In this document: in pieces, positions 4,949 to 54,319 of the stretch | How positions within the stretch are numbered: position 1 is the first letter of the stretch | Layout of the letters: each line of letters opens with the position of its first letter | Source: Cetorhinus maximus | Taxonomy: Eukaryota | Length of the DNA stretch: 64,000 nt | NCBI RefSeq assembly: GCF_964194155.1 | Contig: NW_027597516.1 | Location: forward strand, 1 to 64,000 | Direction of reading: 5' to 3' | Position numbers and translations under genes: made by a program | The notes under the pieces: generated by a model | Seen by the model: the letters and a program-made list of their open reading frames with translations, nothing else | What the model was told of the DNA's origin: nothing | Databases searched by the model: none

Positions 4949-4973
4949 GTAGGACAGAGGGCAATTCTTTAAA

Positions 4974-24704: not shown

Positions 24705-25010
24705 TGCTTGGTAGTGGTTATGATGCCAATTCAGCAGCCCAGAGTTCAAATCCAACCATGGAAAGCTAAATTTGAATTCAGTAAATCTGGTAATCTGTGA
24801 TCTGGCACCAGGAGAATGACCATGTAAATTGCTGATTATTGTAAAACTCCAGCCTGTTCGCTAATGTCCTTCAGGGAAGGGAACTCTTGCCTATACATGA
24901 CTCTACCCCGTACTACATTGCTGACTGACAATGCAGTCACCTAGTAAGCCACTCAAACAACTTCAGGGCAGTGAATGTGGTCTTACCAAATCACTCTGAA
25001 GTAACGTTAG
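24705..25010 (+). mobile_element. tRNA-derived SINE sharing its head with the 13451 LINE
   Basis: GGTAGTGG ... GAGTTCAAATCC boxes followed by a body similar to 13560-13760. Confidence 0.65.
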
Positions 25011-25710: not shown

Positions 25711-25946
25711 GGATGGAGACCATTACGATGCCCTCAGAGATTGTTTGAAAGCAATTTCTTTGAATCCCTCCCACCTGAAGGCCCATTTCCGCCTGGCACG
25801 TTGTTTGTTCGAGTTGAAGTACGTTGCTGAGGCTCTGGAGTGCCTCGATGACTTTAAGGGCCGTTTTCCTGAACAAGCCCACAGCAGCGCCTGTGATGCA
25901 CTGGATCGAGACATCAAGGCTGTGCTCTTCGCAAAGACCGACAGCT
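25711..25946 (+). CDS. WDTC1: WDTC1 coding exon (TPR region)
   Basis: tacag|G GAT GGA ... AGC T|gtgagt. Encodes DGDHYDALRDCLKAISLNPSHLKAHFRLARCLFELKYVAEALECLDDFKGRFPEQAHSSACDALDRDI. Confidence 0.97.
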
Positions 25947-26539
25947 GTGAGTCTCAACAGCCCTGTTATCATGTGGTGACGCTGACACACTTTCTATTCT
26001 TAAACCTAAGGGGATATAAGAATCCAACCAATAGAATGCTAAATTTTCATTGTATAAAATCCCAGCAACCAGTGTATGGAGAAGTAGATACTGTAGGAAT
26101 GGCACTAAAAACTCTCCAAACTTGGGCTTATTTGGTACCAGCTACGAGCCCCCAGATATGGGTTGAGGGCCTTGGATTCATATAGGAAATCTGTTACATG
26201 AAAGGCAGTAAGTTACAGCTCATGGAATCACAATGTTTGAGTGTAGAAACAAGCCATTCATTTCATCAAGTCAGCACCAGTGTTTATCCTTATATAAACC
26301 ACACTGTCTATTACCACTCTTGTGCTCACTCCCCATGCTCTTTAATACCCTGTCTAATCCCACTCTCCCCTCTGTCTTTCCTTCGAAATCCTATTTAATC
26401 TTCCAAATATGTGACCTCCTGTTTTTCTACATTGAGCTGATCTGGTACTCATCTTTGGCCTCCTGCAATCTGTATTTAATAGAACTTTTAATATATCCTA
26501 TCCCACTTCAAAAGTGGCAAGAGCCTCAACCATGGAAGG

Positions 26540-28330: not shown

Positions 28331-28577
28331 TGAGTGACACTGAGCAGGAGCTTGTACAACCGGTTTCCATGGTGACACGGGCATTGGGCAGCTGTTAACG
28401 TCCTGTTATTTGCAATACCTTTAACATTAATAAAAGGTCATTTTTATTTGGCCTAACAGTACCCTAACACTACCAGTCTTGGACAGAGGCCAAGGAGACT
28501 CCAACCTTAGTCGTTATATTTTATTTATCTACTTTGTGTTTGAACTGAGTCGCTGCTCTTATTCCTGGGTTTTACAG

Positions 28578-28752
28578 CTGAGGAGAAGAAGGCAGGAGCT
28601 ACCACCCCAATCCGCATCCGATCGAGTGGCAGGAAGGATTCCATCTCCGATGATGAAGTGATTCTGAGAGAGCGAGGTTATGATTACAAGTCACGCTATT
28701 GTGGTCACTGTAATACTACCACTGACATCAAGGAAGCCAACTTTTTTGGAAG
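28578..28752 (+). CDS. WDTC1: WDTC1 coding exon
   Basis: tacag|CT GAG GAG ... GGA AG|gtaatt. Encodes EEKKAGATTPIRIRSSGRKDSISDDEVILRERGYDYKSRYCGHCNTTTDIKEANFFG. Confidence 0.96.
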
Positions 28753-29019
28753 GTAATTTCCTAATTTACAAGGAAGCAGCAGATTTTGTTTAACACTCTT
28801 AAACTGGAATGTGTGCAGAATCAATCTTTGAATATATTGCAACAAAAGGTGACTTAAAAGAAAGTATGCAGTTGTCCATTATTCTGTAAAATGTTCCTGA
28901 GATTGTTTTTAAGGACAGTTTCCCTAGCTGTTGGGGATAGGTCCAAATTGAGTAAACATAAGGGGCATTCTCAGAATGGCAGTTCCAGTCTTACTCCCTC
29001 GTGCTTTTTTTAATCTTCT

Positions 29020-29500
29020 TTCCCAGAGATTGCTGTGGTGTTTTCATCCATGCCTTTGACACCTCCAAACTGGACTATTCTAATGCTCTCCTGAATGACC
29101 TACCATCTCGCACCCTCCATAAACTTGAGTTCATCCAAAACTCTGTTGCCTGTATCCTAAATCACACCAAGTCCCATTCACTCATTGCCCCTGTGCTTGT
29201 TGACCTAAATTGGCTTAAAATTCTCATCCTTGTGTTCAAATTCCTCCTTCAATACTAGCCTCTTGTGTGTGCATCCCCGACTTTCATTACTCCACCATTG
29301 TCCGTGCTTTCAGCTGCCTTGGCCCTAAGCTCTGCAGTTCCTTCCCTAAACCCCTCTCTCTATCTCTCTCTCCCTTCCTTTAAAACACTCCTTAAAACCT
29401 AACTCTTTAACCAGGCTTTTAGTCACCCATCGTAATATGTCCTCAGTGTCAAATTTTGTTAAAATGTTCTTATGAAGTGCTTTGATACATTTTACTATGT
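29020..29500 (+). mobile_element. L2 LINE 3' fragment
   Basis: IHAFDTSKLDYSNALL..LHKLEFIQNSVACIL motif of the L2 RT C-terminus. Confidence 0.75.
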
Positions 29501-30679
29501 TCATTTTGGGCTCAAAAGGGAATTTCCAAGAGTTTTTCCATAAAATGGCTGCGATGTTCTGTGTTTTTGTGCCTGTATCAAGGGATTGCATGGTCTGGCA
29601 GTGGATCTCTATACCCTAATCCATGAGACAGGCTTGATGGGCCTGCTGGCTTTTTCTGTGTATCTATGAAAACTTTGCTCAGTATTTGTAGAAGAGTGTA
29701 AGGGAAGTCTCGATTTTTTTTGGGGGGACTTTATCTGGAGATGAAAAGAATTAATCTAAGAGGTGGGGTTAAATGGTCAATGATAATGACAATCAGTAGA
29801 TACCTGTATTAAGGAATCAGTTCTCAAGAGGATTAGGACATTAACAAATTCAGTAGAGATGGCAGCAATAATACAGCTGTTCAAATAGGGGGAAAGGGAT
29901 AATCCAGGCAACTACTTCTGGTGAACTAGTTAGTTGTTGATTGGCTCCAATTGATTTCCTAAATTGCCTAAGTAAATGACTAGGGCATGGACTGATCAGA
30001 GATGGTCAGTGAAGAGCTGGCTAATGATGGAATTCTTTTGAGAGAATATGGAAAGCATGGGTGTGGCTGGGAGTGGGTAGGATAGGGTGGATTACACTTA
30101 TATAAATTTAAAGTATTTGACAAATTGCTGGATGGGGAACTGTTTGGCTGGGTTTAAAAAGAATATAACATTTCAAGGTTTGTTGAGCTAAGTGGACTAG
30201 CAACTCTCCTGGAGACAGAAACAGGCTACAGAAATGGGAAGATAAGTAGTAGGTGGAAAATACAGAAAGAAGTGAGGTAATAAATTTTGGAAACAGGAAC
30301 AAAGAATGCAAATACAGAGCTTGATGCTAAAATTCAGTGGGAATAGCCTGAGATTCTCCCTGTCAGATGCTCTAATCTGGATTTATTGGGATGTGTCATG
30401 TATGCTGCATTCTCATGTGGTCAAAATGGCTAAACTATTACAGCATTGAAAACTCTATGGAATAGAATATGAAAGGTCTTGGGGCTTGGTACAAAGTGGA
30501 GTTGCCTTTGAAAATAGCCTAGCTTAGCATAGGCAAGAAAGGCTGAATGGTCTCCTTTTATGTTTGAATGTCTAAAAGAAGAATAATTGACTTTGTTTAA
30601 TTTGAGTGAGTGTGCTGTGTCACTGGCTACAGATCGCCATGTTTTGTAGTTTCTTGCTCCTGAAGGCACTGTCTCAGGC

Positions 30680-31506
30680 TGTTAGGAAAATATAATAATT
30701 TTCATAATGTTATTGGAATTTATTGTAAGGTAGGAATAGTGTGTGTCTGTGTGGAACTTAATTGAATTAAAGACAGCTGGTCTGAAGGCTTTGAGGTGTC
30801 AGAAGAGAAGCTAGGTTTGAAATGTTGAATAGGTAAACATGGCTGAAGTTTTAGAATGTGAGGTATAAAGGGAAAATTTGCATTTTTAGATAAATCAGAG
30901 TAATTTGAATTTGAAAGAGGTGGTGAAATGAAAGACTTAGTCGGAAGAAGCTAAACAGTGAGTTTATTTTTACCAAAGCTCATTGATAAAATTGGTACTA
31001 TGAAAGATATTTATTATTAGCAAAGTAGAGCTGAAAAGACATATTGGGACAATGGGATTTGCATTAAGAAGGGAGAAACCTGTAAAAAGGAGATGAGGAT
31101 ATGTGTAAGAGGAAGGCATTCTAAGACTTAACAGTGTGAAAAGGCTCCAGCCTCTAAGCCTCAAGTTGCTGTCTACATGAACTGAAGTGAAGAAAACTCA
31201 CTTTGAATTTGACTGTTCAGGGTATCGTGTTATTTACCTGGATTTTTTAAAATCTCTTTTACTGTTGCCTTAACATAGTTAGATTAACTAGGAGAGCTAG
31301 GAGTTATCATAGCAGTAATTTGTAAACCTATGTATGTGCTTAAAATCATTTTTTATTAATTTAGTTTTGTAAGAAACCTATAAGACTCAGTGGTCTTATT
31401 ATTACTGAATTCAAGGCACGCATCTCGAAATAAATACAAATTGTAAAATAGTTTTGGCAGTTATTTCAAATTTCCCTCTGAGATTTGCATCTGCTGTGCC
31501 ATAACA
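30680..31506 (+). mobile_element. Solo LTR-like element inserted into a SINE
   Basis: TGTTAGG...CCATAACA inverted termini, related to 20001-20926. SINE-like sequence lies on both flanks. Confidence 0.55.
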
Positions 31507-31786
31507 AGCTTGGGAGTGAATTCTGCTGCTAATGTGCCCAAGTGACCTTGTCTGAACCTCACATTGTCTGAACCTCACAGTGATGATTAACTGGATGGGG
31601 CTGACAATTGAGCTTGATTCCGTCCTTACACACTGAACTTTGCTTCAGGAGTCACCGGCTGGTAATTGCCAATCTCTGACCCAGACACTGAGAACTGGTT
31701 GTCCCTCGTGCCGAATCAGTGACAGTCAACCCTCTCTTTCGATGTCTAAACCTTAACCTACCCTGAGACATATGAGGGATGGCCCT

Positions 31787-32734
31787 TGGGAGTGTGGAAG
31801 GTGATTCGTAGGAGTGTGGAAGGTGATTCGTAGGAGTGTGGAAGGTGATTCGTAGGAGTGTGGAAGGTGATTCGTAGGAGTGTGGAAGGTGATTCGTAGG
31901 AGTGTGGAAGGTGATTCGTAGGAGTGTGGAAGGTGATTCGTAGGAGTGTGGAAGGTGATTCATAGGAGTGTGGAAGGTGATTCATAGGAGTGTGGAAGGT
32001 GATTCATAGGAGTGTGGAAGGTGATTCATAGGAGTGTGGAAGGTGATTCATAGGAGTGTGGAAGGTGATTCATAGGAGTGTGGAAGGTGATTCATAGGAG
32101 TGTGGAAGGTGATTCATAGGAGTGTGGAAGGTGATTCATAGGAGTGTGGAAGGTGATTCATAGGAGTGTGGAAGGTGATTCATAGGAGTGTGGAAGGTGA
32201 TTCATAGGAGTGTGGAAGGTGATTCATAGGAGTGTGGAAGGTGATTCATAGGAGTGTGGAAGGTGATTCATAGGAGTGTGGAAGGTGATTCATAGGAGTG
32301 TGGAAGGTGATTCATAGGAGTGTGGAAGGTGATTCATAGGAGTGTGGAAGGTGATTCATAGGAGTGTGGAAGGTGATTCATAGGAGTGTGGAAGGTGATT
32401 CATAGGAGTGTGGAAGGTGATTCATAGGAGTGTGGAAGGTGATTCATAGGAGTGTGGAAGGTGATTCATAGGAGTGTGGAAGGTGATTCATAGGAGTGTG
32501 GAAGGTGATTCATAGGAGTGTGGAAGGTGATTCATAGGAGTGTGGAAGGTGATTCATAGGAGTGTGGAAGGTGATTCATAGGAGTGTGGAAGGTGATTCA
32601 TAGGAGTGTGGAAGGTGATTCATAGGAGTGTGGAAGGTGATTCATAGGAGTGTGGAAGGTGATTCATAGGAGTGTGGAAGGTGATTCATAGGAGTGTGGA
32701 AGGTGATTCATAGGAGTGTGGAAGGTGATTCATA
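31787..32734 (+). repeat. 22-bp minisatellite (TAGGAGTGTGGAAGGTGATTCR), about 43 copies
   Basis: Near-perfect tandem array with a period of 22 read directly. Confidence 0.97.
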
Positions 32735-32820
32735 GTAAAAGGAAATCTGTGTGACTGTAGCTAAAATTGTTCATTTTTTGTGACAAATGATTCCTGCAAT
32801 GAATTTCTCTTGTCTTTCAG

Positions 32821-33013
32821 TAATGGCCAGTACATTGTCAGTGGTTCAGATGATGGATCCTTCTTCATCTGGGAGAAAGAGACAACAAATCTTGTTCGTG
32901 TTCTGCAAGGCGACGAGTCGATTGTCAACTGTCTGCAGCCTCACCCAAAGCACTGCTTCCTCGCGACAAGTGGCATTGATCCTGTGGTTCGCCTCTGGAG
33001 CCCGAGACCAGAA
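32821..33013 (+). CDS. WDTC1: WDTC1 coding exon (C-terminal WD40)
   Basis: ttcag|T AAT GGC ... CCA GAA|gtatga. Encodes NGQYIVSGSDDGSFFIWEKETTNLVRVLQGDESIVNCLQPHPKHCFLATSGIDPVVRLWSPRPE. Confidence 0.97.
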
Positions 33014-33599
33014 GTATGAACTCTAAGTGACTGTAGACCCTGTAGTGATAGCCCTATTGGGAGAGAACAAAAGCTACCTATTAACCCAAAACTAGCCCTG
33101 AATGAGATAGCTACCTGCTGACCCAATACTATCCCAACTAAATCAATAGGACGGAGCAATTTGCCCAATTAATTCATTGGATAGGTATAGTGATGTTTGC
33201 ATTTGTGGGGTGTCCAAATATAGGGATCATAAGTACAAGATAGTCGATGCTAAATTCTGAGAGAAACTTCTTTACGCAGAGAGTGGTTAGGATGTAGAAC
33301 TTGCTACCTTATAGAGTAGTTGAGTAAATTAACATTGATGTATTTAAGGGGAAAATATATAAACACAAGAGAGGAAGGAATGAAGTTATGCTGAGGAGGG
33401 AGGTGAAGCATAAACAGAGGCATACACCAGTTGGGCTGAATTGCCTGTTCTGTGCTGTAAATTCTATGAAAAAAATTCAATTGGTCTGACCCAATGCCCT
33501 TCCTAAGTTGCCATACAATGTGTTCTATAAGTCAATGGTTTTCAAACTGTACTGCATTTTGGGAAGACTGAAGCCATTGTCTTTGGTTCCCTCCACAAA

Positions 33600-34310
33600 C
33601 TTTACTCCCTAACCAGTAACTCCATCTGTCTCCCTGGAAATTGTCTGAGGCTGAACCAGACCATTCGCAACCTAGGTGTCATACTTGTCACTGAGGTGAG
33701 TGCCTGACCACATACTGTGCCATCAGTAAGACTGCCTATTTCCACCTCTGAAATCATCTGCCTTAGCTCATCTGCTGCATGCCTTTGTTACCTATAGATT
33801 TGACCATTTCAACACACTCCTAGCTGGCCCCACACAGTTCTACCCTCCATAAACTTAGGTCATCCAAAGTTCTGCTGCCTGTGTCCTAACTTGCACCGAG
33901 TCCTCTTCACCCATCACCCCTGTACTTGCTGACCTACATTGGTTCGCAGGCAAGCAATGCCTCAGTTTTAAAATTCTCACCCTTGTTTTGAAATCCTTCT
34001 ATGTACTTACTGGCCCCTTCCTATCTCAGTAATTTCTTTCTGCCTGACAGCCCTCAGATATCTGCACTCCTCTAATTCTGGTCTCTTGCGCATCCTGACT
34101 TTAATTGGCCTGTTGTTGATGGCTATGTCTTCAGCTGCCAAGGCCCTAAATTCTGGAATTCCCTCCCCCTAAAACCTACCTCATTGGTCAAGTTTTTGGT
34201 TATCTACCCCAATACCTCCTGTGGTTTGCTGCCAAATGTTGTTTTCTGACACTTCTGTGAAGCATCTTGATGCGTTTTATTATGTTAAGGGCATCAACAA
34301 GTTGTTTTGA
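33600..34310 (+). mobile_element. L2 LINE 3' fragment
   Basis: Similar to 29020-29500 (cgcaacctaggtgtcata, accctccataaactt, ctggaattccctccc). Confidence 0.7.
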
Positions 34311-34890
34311 GTGAGGTGAAGTGGGAACAGTAAAGGCTTCCGAAATAAATTTGGTGTCAGTGGGTATCAATGATGAGCAGGAGAGAAGCTATGGGGAAGT
34401 AGTACAGAAAATGTCCTTTTTATTGAACTAAAACCTAAACTTTGACTTTTAACTTTTGTAACTGCAGGTCAGTTAATAGAGAGTGGGTCACTGGTCAGGT
34501 TTTGTTAGTTCCTTTGTAGTTTGGGACTGACTGACCCTTGAAACTACTTGAGACTGAAAGGAATGTAATTGTTCAAGCCCAGCTCAAGCTGAGCACATAT
34601 CACGGAGCGAGGCAGAGAGAGTAACTTCTGAAATGGAAATTGTACTGAGGAGGAAGGGACTGCTAAGTAGACTTACTAATTTTGTGCAAAAGGAATATAA
34701 ATTTTAAAATAAAACAAAGCAAACTTTAAAATGGCACCAGAGGAATCTTGCATGGAACATTGCATTGTACCATCAGCACACAGCACTATCACTGCTGTAC
34801 CATCCTGCCCCAGTGGTTGAGCACATGTGTTAGACTGAGGAGCTGATTAGAGCCTGGTGGGAGAGCTGATTTATGTTGTTGTTTTTCCAG

Positions 34891-35085
34891 AGTGAAGATC
34901 AAAATGAGCGAGTGATTGAAGATATGGAGGGGGCTTCACAGGCGAACCAGCGGCGAATGAATGCAGACCCACTTGAGGTCATGCTCTTGAATATGGGATA
35001 CAGGATTACTGGACTTACCAACAGCGGGATGGCCTCAGATGATGAGGAAAACTCTGAAGGCCAGGTGCAGTGCCGGCCGAGCTAA
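34891..35085 (+). CDS. WDTC1: WDTC1 final coding exon
   Basis: tccag|AGT GAA GAT ... Encodes SEDQNERVIEDMEGASQANQRRMNADPLEVMLLNMGYRITGL...GQVQCRPS followed by TAA, matching the human C-terminus. Confidence 0.97.
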   Translation, partial: SEDQNERVIEDMEGASQANQRRMNADPLEVMLLNMGYRITGLTNSGMASDDEENSEGQVQCRPS

Positions 35086-39646: not shown

Positions 39647-40081
39647 TCATTTTCTGGTCCAGGGGACGCAGCCGCGCAGCCCGAGGACGGCGGCCACTAT
39701 CAGCGGCGCCCGGTGTCCCCGGAATTTGAGGCGGGTTTTGATGTTCTGGCTGCGGGCGCTGAGTCCAATCTCCCCCAGCTGGGCGCCGCTCCGGATCCGG
39801 TTCACCAGCTCCCCGTGCTCCACCGCCTCCTGCTCGGCCCGGACCAGGATATCGCGCAGCTGCTGCAGGCCGATCTCCAGCTCCCGGACCCGGCGCTGCC
39901 GCCGCTCCATCTCCAGCAGCCTCCGCCGGGCTTCCGCAAACTCCAGGCCGCTGCTCGAGGTCAGGGCCCGGGACACCGGCTCGCTGGCCGGGCCCCGCTG
40001 CTCCTTCTCCCGCACCTCGCCGGCGGCTGGCGGCGAACTCGCGGCTCTTTGGCCCGACAGCTTTTCCCGGAGTTTCCCCAT
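39647..40081 (-). CDS. TRNP1: TMF1-regulated nuclear protein 1-like, single coding exon, 144 aa
   Basis: LEFAEARRRLLEMERRQRRVRELE...AAVLGLRGCVPW matches recalled human TRNP1 (LELAEARRRLLEVEGRRRLVSELE...ASALGLGGCVPW). Strong Kozak context (GCGATGG), CpG island and polyA signal. TRNP1 and WDTC1 are both at human 1p36.11. Confidence 0.88.
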   Translation of the reverse strand: MGKLREKLSGQRAASSPPAAGEVREKEQRGPASEPVSRALTSSSGLEFAEARRRLLEMERRQRRVRELEIGLQQLRDILVRAEQEAVEHGELVNRIRSGAQLGEIGLSARSQNIKTRLKFRGHRAPLIVAAVLGLRGCVPWTRK

Positions 40082-42031: not shown

Positions 42032-42161
42032 ATGATGGGCTTCGCAGAGTTTTATTTCAATGTGGACAGCGGTTACCTGGAGGGACTGGTCAGAGGGTTT
42101 AAAGGTGGGATACTGAAACAGGCGGATTTCCTCAATCTAGTGCAGTGTCAGACTCTGGAGG
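42032..42161 (+). CDS. V-ATPase V0 subunit d (ATP6V0D family) exon 1
   Basis: Encodes [43 protein letters not shown]; ends GAG G|gtgagt; 130 nt. Confidence 0.95.
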
Positions 42162-43191
42162 GTGAGTTCCTATTGAACTTTGTTTTTCCAGTTCCCTTGC
42201 TGGGAGACCAAAAGAAGGGAAAGACTTGCATTTATATAGCGAAGACAGGACACCCCATAGCGCATATTAGGTACTTTTTGAAGTGTTGTCATTGTTGTAA
42301 TGTAGAAAATGCAACAGCCAATTTGCGAGCAGCAAGCTCTCACAAACAGCAATGTGCTAATGATCAGGTAATCCATTTTTGTGATGTTGATTAGAAGATA
42401 AATATTGGTTAGAACACCGGGGATACCTCCCTTGCACTTCTTTAATACAGTGCAGTGAGGTCTTTTACATCCTCGCGAGAGGGCAAATGGGGTGTGCTCA
42501 AAGTGCAATTTTTCCCCTGTGGACCCAGCCCCTGAGTATCAGTTGGAATTGCTGTGGCTATGGTGGGGAGAGGGGGTGGGGGTGCTGGTACAGGAGTGGG
42601 GGGATTGAGGAGCGGATGGAATAGGTAGAGAATAGGGTTGGGGGTGGGGAGGTTGAGGAGGGGGAGGGTGAGTAGGGTGGATTGTCGGGGGAATCCAGGG
42701 AAGGGGAGTGGGGTGTGAAGTGGAGGGGGATATGTGGAGGAGAGGGAAGATGGGGAGGAGGGGGATGTAGGTTGAAGGGTAACCGAGCCTGCTCCTGCCT
42801 TCGCTCAGTGTCTGGCTGGGTGCAGCTTCCAGTGTGAGGGCCCAGCAAAGGCGGGAAGTAGGATCCTCAGTGATTTCCCTCTTTGGCCTGTGAGCTGACA
42901 GCAAACATGTAGCAAATGTGCCTGGTTATATTAGAGGTAGTGAGTCAAGGTGACGATTTGCTGTGGACACTGAGGTATGAGCTATTTTGATAATGGAAAT
43001 GGTGGAGCTGGAGATGTCAGTCTCCCCATTGGTTCAAAGAGTGTGGAGGTTAATCCTGGGAATTAATCGCCTCTTGCCCTCAGTCCCAGCAAGGGTTAAT
43101 AATCTTGCATTTAATAAGTGGTGTTTATCGAGCACTGTTTCGTGCAGAATAAACCCTTATCTAACCAGAGACTCGTGCTGTCTTTCTGCAG

Positions 43192-43363
43192 ACCTGAAGC
43201 TGCACCTTCAGAGTACAGACTATGGCAGCTTTCTGTCCAACGAAACTGGCCCTCTCACCGTCTCCATCATTGACGACAAACTGAAACAAAAACTGCTGGT
43301 GGAGTTTGTCTATCTGCGAAATCATTCCTTGCAGCCTCTCACCACCTTCCTGGATTATATCAC
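43192..43363 (+). CDS. ATP6V0D-family exon 2
   Basis: tgcag|AC CTG AAG ... ATC AC|gttagt. Encodes [58 protein letters not shown]; 172 nt. Confidence 0.95.
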
Positions 43364-43674
43364 GTTAGTAATCGGGGTTTTGCGTTTAGTTTATTGTCAC
43401 ATGAATATTTTGAAGAGTCAGTTGAAAGCACGTCTGAGGAAATCAGTGTTTCATTAGTAACTCAGTCACATTGCTCACTGTGTGACATTGAGAGGGTGAC
43501 AGCGTGATAGAGGGAGTGATACTGAGTGAGCGACAGTAAGTGTGAGAGTGACAGAGAGTGAATGACTGCTGGGTTACATTAGCCTGGACATTGAGTTTTG
43601 ATGTGAACTTTCCCATGGCTCCAGTTCTGTGCAGTTCAGTGTAACTTGTGCCCATTGCTTGCTCTGTTTTGAAG

Positions 43675-43853
43675 GTACAGTTACATGATTGACAACGTTA
43701 TCCTGCTGATTACTGGCACATTGCACCAGCGTCCTATCTCTGAGCTCCTTCCCAAGTGCCATCCCTTGGGCAGCTTCGAACAGATGGAGGCCGTTCACAT
43801 TGCCCAGACCCCCGCTGAACTCTACAACGCCATCCTGGTCGATACACCGTTAG
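43675..43853 (+). CDS. ATP6V0D-family exon 3
   Basis: tgaag|G TAC AGT ... TTA G|gtaaga. Encodes [59 protein letters not shown]; 179 nt. Confidence 0.95.
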
Positions 43854-43949
43854 GTAAGAGATGGACTCACGGCCCCCAGTACCGGCCAGATGGCGTTCAG
43901 CACCATCTGATCAATAGTCTGGAGCAGCTGCAATACGATGTAGGACCAT

Positions 43950-45330
43950 AGTGTACTGGTCAGTGAGGAGTATCTGTGTACTGTCAGTGCTGGGGTCCGA
44001 GTATCTGTGTATTGGTCAATGCAGGGGTCTGAGTCTCTCACTGTGTATTGGTCAGTGCAGGGGTCTGAGTGTCTCACTGTGTATTGGTCAGTGCAGGGGT
44101 CTGAATGTCTCACTGTGTACTGGTCTGGTCGGTGCAGGGGTCTGAATATCTCACTGTCTATTGGTCAGTGCAGGGGTCTGACTGTCTCACTGTGTATTGG
44201 TCAGTGCAGGGGTCTGAGTACCTGTGTACTGGTCAGTGAACTTCTCTGAATGACTTACTGTGTACTGGACAATGCAGGGGATCGAGTATCTGTGTACTGG
44301 TCAGTGCAGGGATCTGAATGTCTCACTGTGTACTGGTCAGTGCGGGGGTCTGAATGTCTCACTGTGTACTGGTCAGTGCAGGGATCTGAATGCCTCGCTG
44401 TGTATTGGTCAGTGTAGGAATCTGAGCATCTCACAGTGCAGGGGTCTGGTATCTCACTGTGTACTGGTCAGGGCAGGGGACTGAGTATCTGTGTAATAAT
44501 TAGTGAAGGGGTCTGAGTGCCTCACTGTGTATTGGTCAGTGCAAAGGTCTGAGTGTCTCGCTGTGTCCTGGTCTGTGAAGAGGTCCTAGTATCTGTGTAC
44601 GGGTCAGTGCAGGGGTCCTAGTATCTGTGTACCAATCAGTACAGGGTCTGAATGTCTTCACTGTGTACTGTCAGTGTAGGGGCTGAATGTCCCACTGTGT
44701 ACAGGTCAGTGCGAGGGTCTGAAAGTCTCACTGTGTACTGGTTAGTGTATGGGTCTGTGTCTCACTGTGTATTGGTCAGTGCAGGGTTCTGAATTCTCAC
44801 TGTGTATTGGTCAGTGCAGGGGTCTGAGTGTCTCACTGTGTATTGGTCAGTGTAGAAGTCTGTGTGTCTCATTGTGCAGGGGTCTGGTGTCTCACTGTGT
44901 ACTGGTCTGTGCAGGGGTTCGAGTATCTGTGTACTAGTCAGTGCAGGGCTCTGAATGTCGCACTATGGATTGGTCAGTGCAGGGGTCTGAATGTTTCATG
45001 GTGTACTGGTCAATGCAGGGGTCCTAGTATCTGTGTACTGGTCAGTGCAGTGGCCTTAGTATCTGTGTACGGGTTGATGCAGGGGTCCTAGTATCTGTGT
45101 ACCAATCAATACAGGGTCTGAATGTATCACTGTGTACTGGTCAGTGTACGGGTCTGTGTCTCACTGTGTACTGGTCAGTGCAGGCATCTGAGTGTCTCAC
45201 TTTGTATTGGTCAGTGTAGGGGTCTGAAGACTCACTGTGTATTGGTCAGTGTGGGATCTGAGTGTCTCACTGTGCAGGGCTCTGACTATCTCACTGTGTA
45301 TTGGTCAGTGCAGGGGTCTGACTGTCTCAT
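43950..45330 (+). repeat. Degenerate minisatellite with 36-bp (CTCACTGTGTATTGGTCAGTGCAGGGGTCTGAGTGT) and shorter variant units
   Basis: Fills most of intron 3 of the V-ATPase d gene. Confidence 0.92.
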
Positions 45331-45427
45331 ACTTGCTGAGTTACAACACAGGCCATGTGTTAGATCATAGAGCATGTCAGACTGTGTGAGTATGTTGAAC
45401 ACTCACCTGGTAATTTCCATTTCCCAG

Positions 45428-45507
45428 CTTCCTTCTTCCAAGATTGCATCTCGGAGAATGACCTTGATGAAGTCAATATTGAAATATTACGAAATAAACT
45501 CTACAAG
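45428..45507 (+). CDS. ATP6V0D-family exon 4
   Basis: cccag|CT TCC TTC ... TAC AAG|gtaaga. Encodes [27 protein letters not shown]; 80 nt. Confidence 0.95.
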
Positions 45508-46025
45508 GTAAGAACAATAAATCTGATCAGAATGCATAATTTTCTCCCAGGCATCTGTTATAAGAACAAAAAGGAATAGGGGCAGAAGTCTGCTCTATGG
45601 CTCCTCAAACCTGCTTCTTCATTCATTAAGATGATGGCTATTCTTTTACATCACCTCCAGTTACCCCTACTCTCCCCATATCCCTCGATATCAATCTATC
45701 TATCTGCTGACTGAGCAACCACAGCTCTCTGTGGTGGTGAATTCTAAGGTTTCCCAGCCCTCTGAGTGGAGAAAATTTTCTTCATCTCAGTGCTAAACGG
45801 CCAACCCCTTATCCAGAGAATAACTGTTATTTTACAGATAAACCTCACCAACCCCTCGATTAAATTTCAGCCTGTAACTCACTCCTAGGTATCTGTTATT
45901 TTACCTATAAGCCCCCCTGAAACCCTGGTGAGATTATTTTTATTTCTTTCATCAATCTGAGCAGAACCCATTGATAAATGATTTCTTGCTCACTAGCCTC
46001 AGGGTTGTCAATTTTCCTGTTTCAG

Positions 46026-46103
46026 GCTTATCTCGAATCATTTTACAGCTTCTGTAAAGAACAGGGTGGGCAGACTGAAGAAGTGATGTGTCCCATCCTG
46101 CAG
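46026..46103 (+). CDS. ATP6V0D-family exon 5
   Basis: ttcag|GCT TAT ... CTG CAG|gtaagc. Encodes [26 protein letters not shown]; 78 nt. Confidence 0.95.
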
Positions 46104-46289
46104 GTAAGCAAGTTAACCACTTCCCCCACTGTGACTGCATGTCTCTGTAAAGTGTAACTCTCGCAATCTGGCTCTGGGACTCTGGAACAATAAAGGGAAT
46201 CATTAAAATAGACATTGAACAATGAACAATCAGTGATCAATGAAGGTCAGGTTTGAGCCCAGTCAAAGGGAGTTCAGGGACCAGCAGTT

Positions 46290-48394
46290 AGGATGGGATC
46301 TGTGCAACCATTTATAGGGGTTTCCACCATTGTCACTTGATTCCAAGGGTTTCAGAGCATGTGCTATATGGTTCTAGGGTCTCTGTATGAGGACTGAGTA
46401 AGCAAGACAAATATCAAATTAACAGATTGGAAGAAATCTAATTTTGAGTGGTTGAGAATTGAAATAGGGAAGAGCAACTGGAAAAAAAATACAGAGAAGG
46501 AGTGAGAGCAGCAGTGGGAAATAGTTAAATCAGTGATCAATAGAGTGCAGCAGACATCTATTCCACTTAAAAACAAGATTCATGGATGAGTAAAAAGATG
46601 AGTCAGATTGAAAAATATCAAACACTAAGTATATGAACAACATGGGAGAGGATGACAAATAGGAATATAAAGAGGTTACAAAAGAAGTCAAAAGATGAGA
46701 ATTAAGTAACTTAAAAAGGAACTACGAAACTAAATTACTCAACAATGTAAAAAACAAAATAAAATATTCTAACAACACATAAAATTATGACAGGTTTAGA
46801 TAATGTAGACAAAGAAAAAATGTTCCCATTGGCTGATGGTACAAGGAATAGGGGACAAAGATTTAAGGTTTTGGGCAAGAGATACAGTGGAGATGTGAGG
46901 AAAACCTTTTTTTACAGTGAGTAGTAATGATCTGGAACTTGCTGCCTACAAAGGTGGTGGAAGCAGAGACGAAGAATGATTTTGAAAGGAAATTGGAAAA
47001 GCACATGAGGCAAATAACCTCGCAGGGCTGCAGGACTGAAGTAGATGAGTGGGACTGACTCGTTTTACAGACTTACGGACTTACAGAAAGCTGTCAGGGA
47101 CTTAAAGGGCCAAATGGCCTCCTTCTGTGAAATTACGGCTATGACTCCATAACTTTAAATAACAAAGGATAGGGCCACTAAGAATATACAAGCTAAACTC
47201 ACAGGTACTCTCAGCAAAATGGCAGAAATAATGAATGTCTGTCTCAGTATTTACAGGGAGCCTAACAAAGTAGGCATGACATTAGAAAAAGAGAGATAAA
47301 GACATTTTAGATTTGGGGGGGGATGATAATTGATGAACTTAAAGAGGATAAGACTCCTGGTCTGGAAGGATTGTCACTTGTAACCATGCATATTAAAATA
47401 ACTTATAGAACAGAGAGCAGAGGCACCATTACATACATATAACAATTCATTAGAAAAGGGAATAATAGCAAAGAACTGTCAGACATCTAATATTATACCT
47501 ATATTTAAAAAGGGAGATAGAACAAGCCCAGAGAACTATACAAAAGCAAAGTATTGTAGATGCTAGAAATCTGAAATCAAAATAGAAAAAGATAGAAATA
47601 CTCAGCAGGTCAGGCAGCCCCTGTAGAGAAAAGCAGAGTTAATATTTCAGGTCAATAACCGAGTATTTCCAGCATTTTCTGTTTTTATTCCAGGGAGCCG
47701 CAGACCAGTTGGGGGCCGGTTAGCTCAGTTTGCTAGATGGCTAGGATGTGATGCAGAATAACCTCAACAATATTGGTTCGATTCCTGTTCCAGCCTTTAA
47801 TAAGGTAGTAGACCCATGAGTAAGGTCAGAGCATACAAAGCCAGGGACAGGTAGCAGAATAGCTACTAAACAGAAAACAGAAAGTAGGGGTAAAAGGTGG
47901 GGAGTGGTGTTTCACAGGGACCAGTGCTGATACCACTGTTGTTCACCATTTAAGTAAATAATTTTGTCTTGCAAATCAGAAGTATAATTTCAAAATTTTC
48001 AGATGACACGAAGTTACATTGTTGTTAATACAAAAGGAGAATGCAACAAACTAGAGGAAGACATTACTAAACTTGCAAAATGGGCATGTTTTTGGCAAAT
48101 GAATTTCAATATAGACTAATGTGAGGGGGTGCATTTTGTGGGAAGATTAAGGAGGCCACATACTGATGAAAAAAAAGTGTCTAAATGGGGTAGAGAAACT
48201 GAGGGATCTGAGAGCACTAAAAATAGTGCCACATGTTAATAAGGCCATAAAAATTAAATAAAGTACTGGGGTTCATTTCTGGAAGGATAGAACTGAAAAG
48301 CAGAGAGGTTATGCTAAAGCTGTATCAAACCTTGGTTGGAACACACTTGTAGTATTGTGCCCTGTCCTGGTCTTGATATCGTAAAAAGGATATA
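46290..48394 (+). mobile_element. Decayed CR1 LINE (continues at 51011-51660) hosting several nested insertions
   Basis: RT remnants (PIFKKGDRTSPENY, SKFSDDTK, KSREVMLKLYQTLV). The reading RKDI|E..FTR is split by the Harbinger element. Confidence 0.8.
47714..47795 (+). pseudogene. tRNA-Ile-like pseudogene or isolated SINE head
   Basis: Starts GGCCGGTTAGCTCAGTT as in vertebrate tRNA-Ile(AAT) and has the B box GGTTCGATTCC. The anticodon arm is degenerate. Confidence 0.6.
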
Positions 48395-51007
48395 GGGCAG
48401 AATTTTTCGCTGAGTGGGTGGGCACGCGCCCGACCCGCTCGAGTGTAAAATAACACGTGATGATGTTGGGCGAGGGTCCTGACATCATCGCGCACTCTGC
48501 ATGATATTTCGGTCAGCTGGTGTGCGCAGGAATCGGAGCCGCGCCCGCCATCAATTACCAGGCTGGTTAAGGCCATTAAAAAGGCAATTAAGCTAGATTT
48601 TACATTGCCTGTGTGACTTTGTGCTTGTCGCACAGGCAAAATGGGCAGGCGGGCAGCCGACAATTTGCTAAACCTCATCCAAGGGCGGGATAAAAAGGGT
48701 CCACAGCATTGCCAGTGCGAGTAGTGAGGAGTTTAGGAGATAGTTTGCTGCTGGTTGCTTATTGGCACTTGACAGCTTCATCTCTGTTCAGGGCTTCATT
48801 GTTAGCATTTCCAGGCTTCAGTTCAGGACTTATTGGCGTCGCCAAGGCCCCCAGAAGATTCAGACCGTGTGGACCCTTCCAGGTGTCAAACAGCCTTCCC
48901 TTACCCTGGGAATGGGGATTGTGGTCTCTGCTGGTGGCACCTCCTCTGTGGAGGAAGAGAGGGACAGAAGGGAGAGGAGGCCAGGTGCCCCAATGCAGCT
49001 TTGAGGGGAGAGAGCAATGGGAGGAGTGGCTCAGGCACAAGGCGCGCAGGGCCAGCTGGCAGTCCAAGGTGGAAGGGGCCACAGGAGACGTCACTAACCT
49101 CCTGCCAGGGTTTACAGGCAGCGATGCAGCTACCTCAATATGTCTGAGGTGCAATGCCAAAGAAGGCTCCGCCTCTCAAGGGAGACAGTGACCTCCATTT
49201 GTCAGGTGATTGGGCCTGAGATCAGTTCCGACCGTGTGGGTGGACACTCCATGCCAGTGGCTTTGAAGGTCACGGTGGTTCTCAACTTCTTTGCCTCCAG
49301 CTCTTTCCAGGGGTCAGTTGGGGATCTGTGTGGAGTCTCCCAATCAGCTGTCCACAGTTGCATCAAGCAACTCTTTTCAGGTGACTACTGACATGAGAGT
49401 CGCCACTGTCTCAATGGAGGAGGCAGTGCGCTCGGCCATGAGGGTCAATACAGTGCACATGCTCCTCATGGACCTCCGCCAAATCCTCCTGCACATCTTG
49501 CTGGACATCCAGCATCTGCTGCCTAATGGACAACTCCAGAGGCTCAACATCTGCCTTCAACTCAGCATAGTCCTGGTCCCCAGCAGTCCTCCGACTGCTG
49601 GCGCCCTGGGCACACTCTGCCTCCAACTGCACCTCAAGCGAGTGTAAAGTGCCCTCATCAATGTGCACTGACATTCTAGCCGCCGATCTAATGCCCACCA
49701 AGGTGCTGGTATCTGCGCTGCTGCCTGGTTCAGCGAGTGGGTGTGAAACAGGTGCAAATAAAGCCCGGTGGTCCTCCTGCATCAGGGTGGCCCTTCGGTG
49801 TCCAGAGAGTGAGTGCGCGCTGGCGAATCTAAGGGAGAACAAGGACATGTCATTAGTTAAAGCCATCACACTGTCACTGTGCATGCCAGGCACCCTAGTG
49901 AGACAATGGAGATCTGCATCATGGTGCCATCATCTTTCAATGATCAGTGAGGACTGCTGGTTTGAGGCTCCCATCAACAAAGAGGCTACACTAGAATGGT
50001 TGCACAGTACAAAACTTTCACCTCTGTGTACTGCGTTCTCACCTTCATCTGGCACCCCCACCTCTCCACACCCAGTTGCACGTGGAGCGTGCCAGCTCTC
50101 TAGCTCTAGGGCATCCTGCTTGAATCTGGTGAGCAGCAGCAGGTTGAGCAGGCCTCCGCCTGTATGTGACCTCTCTGATGGGTTATGGCTTGTCTTCTCC
50201 TGAAAGGACAGAGGAGCATTGATTAGTCCACTCTCTACCTGCAGCGCCATTGCAGCCTGGCCAACCCCAGCTGAGGAACACCTCACAGGGCACATCCGAG
50301 TTGCAGCCCTTGAGCCACAAGGCACTCAGTCCAAGCAGCCAGGGCTCACCCCCTTGGCCAGCTCTGGCATCATTGACAGTTGGCACTCAGACTCTAGCAC
50401 CCGAGGTCCAGGGGGGAACGGCCAGATCTTAACACTTATGCACACTGATCCATGCCAACACTGTACTTACCCTTCCTGAGCGCAGCAGGTCATTGAACCT
50501 CTTCAGGAACTGTACCCATGTGCATTGCATCACGTCATGGCTGCTAACCTCCTCCCATGCCCACTTTGTCAGATGCGGTGGCCTCCTCTTCCCATCTCTG
50601 GGGACAATGGTGTCCTTCCTGGTGGCCACCTCCTCCAGGAGGATCACGAGGCACCCATCCAAAAAGCAGGCGGCCGAGTGCCCACCCGACCTGCCCTTCC
50701 ACCTACTGGCCCGAGCCACACTCGACTCCATCACATTAGGTAACGAGAGACAGAAGAGATGTTCTTCCATGGCAGCCTTCAAGGGGCTGTTATTATTAAA
50801 CCAGCCGCCGGGTCACTGTTGGACTCAGCAGCTGACAGACCCCCTCCCCCGCCCCGCCCTTCCCAACCAGTGAGGAGCTGCGTTTCATGCTGGGCGAGCA
50901 TTAATTGGCCCGCCAACGTGAAATCAAAGCTGGGGGCCGGTCGGGGGCAGCGACCCATTTCCCAGCCGATCCTGGACCCACCGCCTGCCAAACTGAAAAT
51001 TCTGCCC
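48395..51007. mobile_element. PIF/Harbinger DNA transposon, internally deleted
   Basis: Perfect 12-bp TIR GGGCAGAATTTT/AAAATTCTGCCC and 3-bp TSD ATA. Plus-strand HARBI1-type transposase N-terminus at 49140-49380 (RLRLSRETV..KVTVVLNFFASSSFQGSVGDLCGVSQSAV). Minus-strand Myb/SANT-like ORF at 50429-50782. Confidence 0.93.
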
Positions 51008-51231
51008 ATAGAGATTTGGAGAAGTGCAAGATTCACAAGGATATCACCAGAACCGAGAAGATATACTTATTGGGGAAGACTGAACACGCTAGGGCTCTTT
51101 TCTCCAGAAAAAAAGAATAGTGAAGGGCAGCCTGAAAGAAGTCTTTAAGATTATGAAAATAGGGGAGAAGTAAAGAAGATATTTCCACTTGTGGGAGAAG
51201 CCCAAAACCCAAAACTAGGGACCATGAATAT

Positions 51232-51399
51232 TGTCTCGTGTTTAAAGACAGCAGTGCTTCTCAGTGCTTTCTCATTGCAAGTCTTTATTGAACTGAACTC
51301 AAGATGGCAGCTTCCAGAGAGCTGCGACATGGTAGAGGTCACATGACTACAGAAAGCCAGATAGGACATGTAGAACCAATTGCATTTCAAACCCAAACA
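51232..51399 (-). mobile_element. 168-bp solo LTR with 5-bp TSD
   Basis: AATAT|TGT...ACA|AATAT, with an AATAAA on the minus strand. It interrupts the CR1 3' region. Confidence 0.75.
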
Positions 51400-51745
51400 A
51401 ATATAAGATAGTTGCTAATAAATTCAATAAGGAGCTCATAAGAAACTTCTTTACCTAGAGAACAGTAAGAATGTAGACAGACACTACCAAATACAATAGG
51501 TAGAATAGATGCATTTAAGGGGATCCTACATAAGTACATGAGGGATATATTGATTTGGTTAGATAAAGTAAGATGGGAAGAGGCTCATGTGGAACATAAA
51601 CACTCCCATAGACCATTTGGAGAGAATAGCCTGTTTCTGTGCTGTGCTGTCTATGCATTTCAGTATGTCTGATTCTGAGGTATCCCTCCATGAGCACAGC
51701 CTCACTCTGGGGTTTTATCTCACTCGCTGGTATGTTCCTGTCTAG

Positions 51746-51922
51746 TTTGAAGCTGACCGCCGTGCGTTTATCATCACTCTGAACTCCTTTGGCACCGAGC
51801 TAAGCAGAGAGGATCGGGCTGCACTTTACCCTTGCTGTGGCAGGCTTCACCCAGATAGTTTGACTCTCTTGTCCAAAGCTGAGGATTTTGAGCATGTGCG
51901 TGCAGTTGCTGAATATTATGCG
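51746..51922 (+). CDS. ATP6V0D-family exon 6
   Basis: tctag|TTT GAA GCT ... TAT GCG|gtacgt. Encodes [59 protein letters not shown]; 177 nt. Confidence 0.95.
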
Positions 51923-52095
51923 GTACGTTCTCTAACTGATACCAAAGCTCTCGTTGTTACTCCAATCAATGTTCATTCAATGTGCTCTTCCTGTTCCCTG
52001 CCAGTCAAACTTTCCCATTCTGTCCTGGACCTTGACCTGTGTTAGGGTGAATGAGAAGATTCTGAGCCCAATCCAGAGCCCACAATTTCCTGTAC

Positions 52096-52228
52096 GGGCA
52101 GCTGAGACAATCTCTGACCAGACAGCTGAGGCCGTCTCCGTCTGGGCGGCTGGGACTGACTCTACCTGGGCAGCTGAGGCCGTCTCCGTCTGGGCGGCTG
52201 GGACTGACTCTACTTGGGCAGCTGAGAG
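52096..52228 (+). repeat. 48-bp tandem repeat (24-bp sub-period), about 2.7 copies
   Basis: GCAGCTGAGGCCGTCTCCGTCTGGGCGGCTGGGACTGACTCTAC occurs twice, with partial copies. Confidence 0.85.
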
Positions 52229-52596
52229 CATCTTTGTCTCAGGATTTACCTGGCGACCTTGTCACATGGCACCTGCTCCCACTGGCGTTGGGAGGAGGCC
52301 CTTCAGTGGCCGGTAATTAACTATTTAAAGGCCTCAATTGGCCTAAGGGCAAGTGAGCTGCTTGACGCCTACCCTGCCACTGGTAAATACCAGTAGGGAT
52401 GGGTAGGCAACAGGCAAGGCACCCCTCCCATCCCATCCCATCTGATTTTGCACTACTCCGCTGCCCCCCCCTCCCCGCCAACATCCAGCCTGCTCCTATT
52501 GGTGGGGGTGGGGTGGGTTGGTCTGAATTCCAGGCTGTGGGACCCTTTCCCAGGATTATGTTTATTTCTGACCTGCCTCTTATTCCCTTCTGTCAG

Positions 52597-52674
52597 GAAT
52601 ATAAATTCTTGTTTGAAGGTGCAGAGAAGAATTCAGATGAGAAGACGCTGGAGGACAAGTTCTTTGAATATGAG
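52597..52674 (+). CDS. ATP6V0D-family exon 7
   Basis: gtcag|GAA TAT ... TAT GAG|gtaaag. Encodes EYKFLFEGAEKNSDEKTLEDKFFEYE; 78 nt. Confidence 0.95.
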
Positions 52675-53396
52675 GTAAAGGCCCCAAAATGGTCCCTCAG
52701 TCCTCCCATCCCCTCTCACCCCCTCATCCCTTTTCATCACCTATACCCCACCCTCATTCACCTCAATCCCCTCTCCCCCTTTCACCCTTCACCCCTACAC
52801 CTTCCTTCTTCCTTCAATCCCCCCCACCCACCTCCACCCTTACCAATTCCACCCTCCTCCAACCCCCTCACCACAATGTGTATCAGGTGGGGTGCATTTT
52901 GTTTCTGCAGAGTTTGAGTTGAGGCTGTATTTGTGGATTAAATACATTGGCCAGGAGCTGGGTCAGACTTGGCCTGGTGATCAAGACACGCTCCAGAGTA
53001 AAGGATGGAGCTGCTGCAAGCTATAAAAACCTGAAGCATCCCAAACCATGGCCGATTCTTTTGGTTTGGTGCTTTGTGTGAGAAACACTGGGGAAACATC
53101 CTGAACTGCAGCCTGGGTAGAAACACCGGGGATGGACAGTCCTATGTTAGTTACAATACATTGAAATGTTTCCCGCCCAAATCAGGCAGGAGTGAGGTAA
53201 CAGGGACCATTGCCAAAGGATACGAAGACATTGACAGTGCTCAATTCTAACGGACCAGGAAAAGGACAGGGGGCTTTCAGCAAAAGTAACTTGTTCCCAA
53301 AATAAGTGGCTCACCCACCTCAGTCCAGGGTGCTCACACACTACATGGCCTCACCCTTCTTTATCCAACTGTAAATCTCACTCTCTTCCTTCCCAG

Positions 53397-53558
53397 GTGA
53401 AACTCAATGTGCTGGCGTTTGATAACCAGTTTCACTTTGGGGTGTTTCACGCTTACATGAAGCTGAAGGAGCAGGAATGTCGGAATATCGTCTGGATCGC
53501 AGAATGTATAGCCCAGAGGCATCGCACTCGTATCGACAACTACATCCCCATACTCTAA
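53397..53558 (+). CDS. ATP6V0D-family exon 8 (last)
   Basis: cccag|GTG AAA ... Encodes [53 protein letters not shown] followed by TAA. Total CDS is 1056 nt. Confidence 0.95.
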
Positions 53559-53988
53559 CTGCAAATCACCTAAGCCATGACCAGTGCCTTAGTAACCAGT
53601 GACCAATGACCAACTGCTGTAAATTGTCCCAGTAACTGACCCTCAGTAACCAGCCTACAGCAACTTACTCTGAGTAACTGCCTCGCCCATACAGCCTCAA
53701 GCAACCTGCAATTTGCTCATCCTGTAACATGCCCTCAGTAATTAATCTTTAGCCATTTGTTGATCTCAGTAATCAGTCCTGAGGCAGCAACCCCTGGTTA
53801 GTAGACTAATCATTCGCTCAACCCCTGGGCTGGAGATGCTGTGATCCCAGTAATAACTCCCTCATTGCTATCTGTCTGATTTAGTGTGTTCTGCTAAATA
53901 ACCTCATTTCATCATGATTTGGAGTGGATGCACCTGCCTGAGGTGTCCAATCAGAAATGAGAACTATTCCTTGTGTACAAAATAGTCC

Positions 53989-53994
53989 ATTAAA
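53989..53994 (+). terminator. Candidate polyA signal (ATTAAA) of the V-ATPase d gene
   Basis: About 430 nt after the stop codon, just before repeats resume. Confidence 0.5.
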
Positions 53995-54319
53995 ACAATA
54001 TCATTCTTACCTAATGGGCTTTTTAAGTTCTGTCAAATGTAATGTAAGAACATAAGAAATAGGAGCAGGAGTAGGTGGCCCCTGGAGCCTGCGCCGCCAT
54101 TCAATAAGATGATGGCTGATCTGATTGTGGACTTAACTCCACTTTCCTGTCTGCTCCCGCCTCCACCCCCCCCCCCCCAATAACTCTTGACTCCTTTGTA
54201 AATGAAAAATCTATCTAACTCAGCCTTGAATGTATTCAATGACCCAGTCTCCGCTGCTCTCTGGTTAGTGAATTCACTAAACATAGCACATGTGGAAGAT
54301 TGCCACACACCCCAATTAT

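Follow-up and report, generated by a model that had tools for sequence, protein, structure and literature searches.

The window, a 64,000-nucleotide stretch of Cetorhinus maximus DNA, carries on its plus strand an intact V-ATPase V0 subunit d gene, which is composed of eight exons (1056 nt) encoding 351 amino acids plus a stop codon, and of seven introns, all of the GT-AG type. The intact frame, exon number and protein length read by an earlier note on this DNA were borne out, and the motifs it listed are found in the spliced protein. Exons of the gene are covered by spliced contigs from relatives, in runs from two studies. A single presumed RNA run labelled with this species gave no contig over exon 6, which says nothing about expression either way. 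Its coding-exon lengths equal those of d1 at all eight exons (8/8), and the gene is therefore not a retrocopy. The following features were annotated:

1699..35085, plus strand: WDTC1-like gene, 3' part (WD40 and TPR exons), from ORFs and TPR Pfam matches
39647..40078, minus strand: TRNP1-like single-exon ORF of 143 aa, from the top Atlas match and the ORF
42032..42161, plus strand: ATP6V0D2-like exon 1 with the ATG, 130 nt, from the gene model; a relative's spliced contig begins at 41977 (run X6)
43192..43363, plus strand: exon 2, 172 nt, from the gene model; spliced in run X4 and run X6 contigs
43675..43853, plus strand: exon 3, 179 nt, from the gene model and relatives' spliced contigs
45428..45507, plus strand: exon 4, 80 nt, from the gene model and relatives' spliced contigs
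46026..46103, plus strand: exon 5, 78 nt, from the gene model and relatives' spliced contigs
51746..51922, plus strand: exon 6, 177 nt, including codon 251 (51857-51859), from the gene model
52597..52674, plus strand: exon 7, 78 nt, from the gene model; spliced in a run X4 contig
53397..53558, plus strand: coding part of exon 8 and stop codon, 162 nt, from the gene model and relatives' spliced contigs
53559..54050, plus strand: likely 3' UTR; a relative's contig aligns as far as 54050
53989, plus strand: candidate polyadenylation signal ATTAAA, from a hexamer scan

The TRNP1-like ORF has 'TMF1 regulated nuclear protein 1' as its first Atlas match (cosine 0.93) and 20 relatives at E values up to 0.001, and matches no Pfam family below E 0.6. 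It lies inside a CpG island (39501-40500) and is arranged head-to-head with the d gene, the two start codons being ~1.95 kb apart. The WD40/TPR gene, whose 5' part lies beyond this contig, we take to be WDTC1 on the basis of its motifs, a name that agrees with the skate annotation.

Conservation of the protein

The protein agrees with a great white shark RefSeq protein at 350 of 351 residues (99.7%), and the orthologues compared, from seven sharks and rays, are 90.9-99.7% identical to it. The great white protein matches the Pfam family PF01992 (vATP-synt_AC39) along the full profile (1-339 of 339, E 1e-101), and four window exons directly pass the cut-off of this family. Among columns that are the same in at least 95% of the homologues, 157 of 158 are kept, the exception being Gly251Ser: codon 251 specifies Ser in the window and Gly in all 276 other aligned homologues. 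Judged from this conservation, Ser251 may impair the protein of this individual or species. Most of the changes that had been regarded as private to this gene are common to other sharks and rays, and Ser251 alone is private. Among the differences listed, 18 codons are touched, 15 of them synonymously.

Subunit d loci in the assembly

A query of the assembly with coelacanth d2 gave 16 matches, eight at each of two loci, and neither three further exon searches nor a Pfam family search of the assembly detected a third d locus. The second locus, on contig C6, is a canonical d1, 96.9% identical to the cuckoo d1 and located 52 kb from an AgRP-like exon, with a PSKH-type kinase ~240 kb away. On C11, a match of 41 residues (E 0.197) was recovered by neither the coelacanth d2 nor the Pfam family search and was treated as chance. 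The window gene is thus the only d2-clade gene detected in a genome assembly that may be incomplete. The window belongs to an unplaced contig of 77 kb, and the TMEM222-family match sits on another contig (C3519); since the region is fragmented in the assembly, a further d copy may have escaped it. The earlier note had put forward, as its main claim, a third vertebrate paralogue in the form of an ohnologue lost in mammals, to be checked by locating separate d1 and d2 genes beside this one: the d1 is present next to AgRP, a separate d2 was not found, and the claim is unsupported, both by the two d loci detected and by the phylogeny described below.

Phylogenetic placement and diagnostic residues

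Two trees were built, the first from 31 of 47 rows after the removal of 16 that were long-branched or redundant, and the second from 30 rows with mammals and eel left out. In both, the window gene and its shark and ray orthologues join bony-vertebrate d2 (100/98) to the exclusion of d1. A FastTree phylogeny of 263 rows (261 of 320 stored proteins, 300-400 aa in length, and the two models from the same genome) likewise united sharks and rays with bony d2 (98); in it the bony and shark clades contained no row of one another, and a third shark clade was not seen. Among the matches listed, which include 15 of the 29 shark-cluster members, neither chimaera nor hagfish was present. AU tests gave p 0.0053 for a grouping of sharks with d1 (p 0.033 with lamprey added), and p 0.045 and 0.011 for sharks placed outside d1+d2; the values 0.045 and 0.033 are marginal, and the groupings were tested when an initial tree was already known.

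The shark and ray sequences form a sister group to bony-vertebrate d2 as a whole and do not fall inside it, with moderate support for the monophyly of bony d2 (80/56 and 86/87 in the two trees). Because such a position suits both an orthologue and a 2R sister copy, hidden paralogy is conceivable. The branch from the shark split to the bony crown measures 0.038-0.046, versus 0.079-0.099 for the d2 stem (two trees), its shortness being a weak hint of speciation.

At 33 columns diagnostic for d1 versus d2, the window protein has the d2 state at 19, the d1 state at six and neither at eight. It shares 10 of 18 d2-derived states and none of the six d1-derived ones; the d2 states span residues 7 to 342 without any d1 block, and five of the six d1-type residues are ancestral. 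The mixture of d1-like and d2-like motifs seen previously is real as regards the motifs; as judged from the alignment, however, the 'd1-like' ones are ancestral states retained by non-mammalian d2 and are not specific to d1. The apparent mixture resulted from a comparison made with the fast-evolving mammalian d2.

Genomic position

The address of the gene near WDTC1 and TRNP1, singled out early as unusual, is real, and in this genome the place upstream of WWP1 that d2 usually takes has neither an assembly gap nor a d gene. In a bichir gene model d2 is fused directly to a C2-WW-HECT ligase, and it was a query with this ligase, and not the RMD1-3 search, that anchored the 8q21-like block on contig C4; the RMD1-3 family search of the assembly gave matches on C5, C19 and C33 and none on C4. 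The 400 kb upstream of the best ligase match contain no N and no d exon. A three-exon PSKH-type kinase is present in this interval, the ORFs of which were read by eye and in part, so that small genes could be overlooked. Three short DNA matches were found in the C4 interval, none with protein-level support: one of 32 nt (E 0.002) inside the WWP1-like gene, and two of 24 and 21 nt (E 0.35).

In the little skate, Wdtc1 lies on Leri_26C at 22.33 Mb and a gene labelled Atp6v0d1-1 at 22.38 Mb, ~50 kb away, while Wwp1 is on Leri_4C (PMC10115646, SI Table 10); this d gene next to Wdtc1 was identified from its table label and position. Synteny beyond the present genome was drawn from the one fused bichir gene model and from published passages and tables. 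The Simakov supplements gave no match for the chicken chromosomes queried.

Origin of the window gene

The window gene is most probably the shark orthologue of ATP6V0D2, likely moved together with its introns from the neighbourhood of WWP1 to that of WDTC1 and TRNP1. We infer orthology in preference to 2R sister paralogy, as well as the direction and the date of the move. The ancestral place of d2 would have been upstream of WWP1, from which the gene would have been transferred as intron-containing DNA, prior to the divergence of sharks and rays. A relocated d2 had been the fallback proposal of the earlier note, and it is the one that the data favour, given the empty WWP1 slot and the skate d gene by Wdtc1. 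For the split from bony d2 the tree topology fits speciation and 2R alike; parsimony and chromosome identity favour speciation. In the literature searched, which covered mainly papers outside subscription and part of the skate supplement, no relocation of shark d2 and no third vertebrate d gene was described.

A place upstream of WWP1 is typical of bony d2, although an orthologue by descent need not have it. Since the gene does not occupy this position, a small share of probability was kept for 2R sister paralogy. The gene would then be the beta-subgenome sister of d2, originally located by ASIP on a chromosome similar to GGA20; cartilaginous fishes would have kept this beta copy and moved it to the WDTC1 region, bony vertebrates would have lost it, and sharks would have lost the true d2 along with the A2 agouti gene. 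It is unlikely, though conceivable, that reciprocal loss in this manner masks a third jawed-vertebrate d lineage. The branching of the window gene outside all bony d2 fits such a history, and so does the WWP1 slot, which lacks both d2 and A2 agouti, as one deletion could account for both: only two agouti loci were found in the assembly, and no A2 agouti gene is reported in skate (PMC3397983). Ohnologues retained in chondrichthyans alone are, moreover, described in a figure legend of the skate paper (PMC10115646). The scenario nevertheless requires the same move and two additional losses. The ASIP-like and ITCH-like loci are on C13, whereas the window gene is not. According to the skate data (PMC10115646, SI Table 3), LER26, which carries the skate d gene, is tentatively assigned to 'KJ_2beta', whereas LER4 (DJ), where Wwp1 lies, has LER21 as its beta partner; the d family is presumably a member of linkage group D. 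The branch that separates the bony crown from the shark split, being short, also speaks, weakly, against it. If true, this history would amount to a clean reciprocal ohnologue loss and would be relevant to the debate on the AgRP/ASIP/A2 paralogon.

It is very improbable that the gene represents an independent d3 lineage, separated at or before the duplication into d1 and d2, which survived in cartilaginous fishes alone, with a separate shark d2 either present or lost. In its favour, the raw identity of the window protein is about equal to d1 (76.9-77.8%) and to non-mammalian d2 (73.8-79.8%), and its chromosomal position is unusual; against this, placement outside d1+d2 was disfavoured by the AU test, ten d2-derived residues are held in common, and the assembly and the 263 rows revealed neither a separate d2 nor a third shark clade. 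Still more doubtful is a diverged d1 duplicate, or a d1/d2 chimera formed by recombination or gene conversion, which could draw on the protein of exon 3, 95% identical to the d1 of the same genome, and on the name 'd 1-like' carried by some RefSeq models, but is contradicted by the AU test of sharks with d1, the lack of d1-derived states and of any d1 block, and the ancestral nature of most d1-type residues. An assembly artefact, haplotig or decaying pseudogene, as the unplaced 77 kb contig and a Ser at an otherwise invariant Gly might suggest, is scarcely credible in view of the 77.8% identity to the other d locus, the orthologues in all seven sharks and rays compared, the spliced contigs in relatives and the predominantly synonymous differences.

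Predicted function

Subunit d caps the c-ring of the V-ATPase and connects the ring with the D/F central stalk, and in mammals d1 is ubiquitous. Mammalian d2 is reported from kidney, osteoclast and lung (PMC2835735). The role that we infer for shark d2 is by analogy: it may be used in place of d1 in specialised proton-secreting cells, for which V-ATPase/pendrin ionocytes of the gill, kidney, and resorbing cells of the macrophage lineage are, with moderate confidence, the likeliest sites.

Comparison with known subunit d genes

Read in this way, the result assigns to the d2 clade the shark RefSeq models inconsistently named 'd 1-like' or 'd 2-like', and it supplies a candidate isoform for the base-secreting cells of the shark gill. 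It would imply that d2, known from mammalian osteoclasts and kidney, was retained under constraint in boneless animals, and that a single gene moved between chromosomes in a lineage with an otherwise very conservative karyotype.

The window gene resembles bony-vertebrate ATP6V0D2 in its clade, its length of 351 aa, its d2-derived residues and its identity of ~80% to coelacanth and bichir d2, but it adjoins WDTC1/TRNP1 instead of lying upstream of WWP1, and is without the A2 agouti neighbour. Mammalian ATP6V0D2 is far more diverged than the shark gene, to which oryx d2 is 66% identical. With ATP6V0D1 it has in common the family, the length, the coding-exon lengths and a full-length match (E ~1e-190; solved structures PDB 6vq6, 6wlw), yet a separate d1, 77.8% identical, resides beside AgRP on C6, and no d1-derived residue is shared. 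Shark and ray RefSeq proteins (XP_041069149.1, XP_067863032.1 and XP_051892346.1) are direct orthologues already present in the databases, from which the window protein differs in being the only one with Ser251.

Gene structure and transcripts

Contig C1458, whose first 64 kb form the window, is 77,164 bp long and belongs to a 3.99-Gb assembly that is fragmented in this region. Two features carry the discussion:
window 42032-53558, plus strand, V-ATPase V0 subunit d gene of 8 exons (130, 172, 179, 80, 78, 177, 78 and 162 nt)
window 39647-40078, minus strand, intact single-exon TRNP1-like ORF of 143 aa (Atlas TRNP1 cluster, 0.93)

All introns of the d gene are GT-AG and the frame is open over 351 aa, bearing out the intact 8-exon gene described in the earlier note, and the product shares 350 of 351 residues (one difference) with a great white shark RefSeq model, which places the source among sharks near that species. 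Transcript support consists of contigs from presumed-RNA runs of related organisms: a single intronless 1,607-nt contig of run X6 covers exons 1-6 and 8 as well as the 3' UTR, the 77 letters at the place of exon 7 being unlisted; run X4 provides two intronless contigs (exons 2-4 and exons 5-8), and runs X1 and X3 single-exon pieces only. Codon 251 (window 51857-51859) encodes Ser, where every one of the 276 other subunit d homologues aligned has Gly. Contigs from two runs of a single sample, which may be the one that was assembled, agree with the window here, and a relative has a Gly codon; Ser251 may be either fixed in the species or an individual variant. Minisatellite-like tandem arrays lie upstream of exon 1 (41160-41560), in intron 3 (43950-45330) and downstream of the gene (54290-55190), and LINE-like reverse-transcriptase fragments are found at about 11.1-16.6 kb.

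Two subunit d loci found in the assembly

Genome searches with four exon queries, a full-length coelacanth ATP6V0D2 (d2) query (16 matches, eight per locus) and the Pfam family all pointed to one pair of loci, in the window and at C6:99,467,923-99,504,728. A third paralogue beside separate d1 (ATP6V0D1) and d2 genes, as first proposed, is not supported by these searches of the assembly. The C6 gene, with coding exons equal in length to those of the window gene, encodes a protein whose identity is 96.9% with cuckoo d1 and 77.8% with that of the window, and is d1. An agouti-family exon lies 52 kb from it, and a paralogue (84% identical) of a kinase on sequence C4 about 240 kb from it. Within this genome, the names AgRP, ASIP, PSKH1/2, WWP1/WWP2/ITCH and TMEM222 are our own, given on the basis of characteristic motifs, of Pfam domains and of neighbouring genes, and are not database labels.

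Phylogeny and the apparent mosaic

The window protein falls in a cluster of 29 sequences; among the 15 listed, 13 species are named, exclusively sharks and rays, with the labels 'd 2-like' or 'd 1-like'. Neither chimaera nor hagfish is among the names listed, and a separate d1 is listed for three of the 13 species. In a 31-row tree (LG+C20, six invertebrate outgroups), sharks and rays group with bony-vertebrate d2 (100/98), bony d2 has the shark clade as its sister (80/56), and lamprey groups with d1 (87/73). With a second model, mammals and eel left out, supports were 100/98 (sharks/rays plus bony d2) and 86/87, and a 263-row FastTree recovered the same two jawed-vertebrate clades without a third. 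AU tests, all made after the first tree had been seen and two of them marginal, gave p = 0.0053 for shark with d1, 0.033 for shark with d1 and lamprey, and, for shark outside d1+d2, 0.045 when lamprey was kept inside and 0.011 when it was not; placements of the shark clade with d1 or outside d1+d2 are disfavoured. In the dasyurid marsupials Antechinus and Sarcophilus, an additional diverged protein labelled 'd 1-like' (P0069, P0315, P0316), possibly a retrocopy, forms a long branch within d1.

In a comparison of d1 (five sequences) with non-mammalian d2 (eight sequences), 33 columns tell the two apart; there the window protein matches d2 at 19, d1 at six and neither at eight. When the columns are polarised on invertebrates, it carries 10 of 18 d2-derived and 0 of 6 d1-derived states, and five of its six d1-type residues are ancestral. 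All five motifs read as d1-like in the earlier note occur unaltered in at least one non-mammalian d2, four of them also in amphioxus or acorn worm. The mixed appearance arises because the comparison is coloured by mammalian d2, which has a long branch (0.41 in the 31-row tree) and is 66% identical to either shark protein.

Chromosomal position

The human genes map to chromosomes 16 (d1) and 8 (d2) according to PMC6276090. The accessible parts of two papers place ripk2, snx16, agrp2 and then atp6v0d2 in order in cichlids (PMC6916709), and ATP6V0D2 with the A2 agouti gene (AgRP2/ASIP2) on one contig in gar, skate being given there as without A2 (PMC3397983). In a bichir gene model d2 is fused with the C2-WW-HECT ligase downstream of it; used as query, this ligase matches best at C4 118.995-119.095 Mb and more weakly at paralogues on C6 and on C13. 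The neighbouring kinase is:
C4:118,748,163-118,824,600, same strand as the WWP1-like gene, PSKH-type kinase of three exons

The CpG island of the WWP1-like ligase lies about 75 kb beyond this kinase. Since C4 118.60-119.00 Mb (400 kb) contains no N and no d exon with nine protein queries, the likely ancestral slot of d2 is assembled and empty. We take human PSKH2 to be on the opposite strand to WWP1; in that case one of the lineages would have undergone a local inversion. The agouti search of this genome found two loci only (C6 and C13) and no A2, so both d2 and A2 are absent from the WWP1 region (C4:118,824,600-118,899,000), a joint absence that bears on the agouti paralogon debate. An RMD1-3 family search matched C5, C19 and C33 and not C4, where RMDN1, presumably a WWP1 neighbour, was expected; the search may have overlooked it, or the gene may have moved or disappeared. 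A degenerate-looking histone H2B-like fragment from the ORF list (C4:118,887,633-118,888,112) lies just upstream of the WWP1-like promoter.

At its present address the d gene stands head-to-head with the TRNP1-like ORF, about 1.95 kb apart. TRNP1 has been studied for its role in mammalian cortical folding. The ORF has 20 relatives (best 90% identical), and weaker Atlas leads to SNARE-family clusters (0.81-0.84) give a lead towards a SNARE-derived coiled coil. The part of skate SI Table 10 available places Wdtc1 at 22.33 Mb and Atp6v0d1-1 at 22.38 Mb on Leri_26C, with Wwp1 on Leri_4C (PMC10115646); the WDTC1 address is common to batoids, the skate d gene being known by its table label and position alone.

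Origin and function

The gene is intact, belongs to the d2 clade, stands at a changed address and has kept its introns; with the WWP1 slot empty, this agrees with the relocated d2 that the earlier note held as its fallback. Most likely it is an ordinary orthologue of d2, a real gene whose address is unusual. A sister of d2 from the beta subgenome of the early vertebrate (2R) duplication would produce the same tree, but requires two further losses, and the shortness of the branch leading to the bony crown is a weak sign against it. It is also not on the expected chromosome: in the accessible part of skate SI Table 3, LER4 is DJ 1alpha, LER21 DJ 1beta and LER26 tentatively KJ 2beta (PMC10115646), and on this list the chromosome carrying Wwp1 does not have LER26 as its 2R partner. 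Given the losses and the wrong chromosome, we regard such a sister as improbable.

For a relocated d2 orthologue, d1 and d2 would have arisen, along with their agouti neighbours, when the genome was duplicated at an early stage; on the stem of sharks and rays, d2 would have moved as DNA out of the PSKH2-WWP1 interval and been inserted next to WDTC1, head-to-head with the TRNP1-like gene, A2 presumably being lost meanwhile. RefSeq already lists proteins of this clade, with '-like' names. The literature covered, with few of the subscription journals and parts of the skate supplements, gave no account of their orthology or relocation; the supplements of PMC7269912 yielded no hit, and the available portion of PMC10032658 does not extend to non-mammals.

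Subunit d connects the c-ring with the central stalk. As far as the available texts go, atp6v0d2 is missing in four stomachless teleosts (PMC10991444); mammalian d1 is ubiquitous, d2 being seen in kidney, osteoclast and lung (PMC2835735), and osteoclast fusion and acidification require d2 in mice (PMC6276090). Elasmobranch gills contain base-secreting cells with V-ATPase and pendrin (PMC13122571, in part), which by analogy would be a likely site where the window gene is used.
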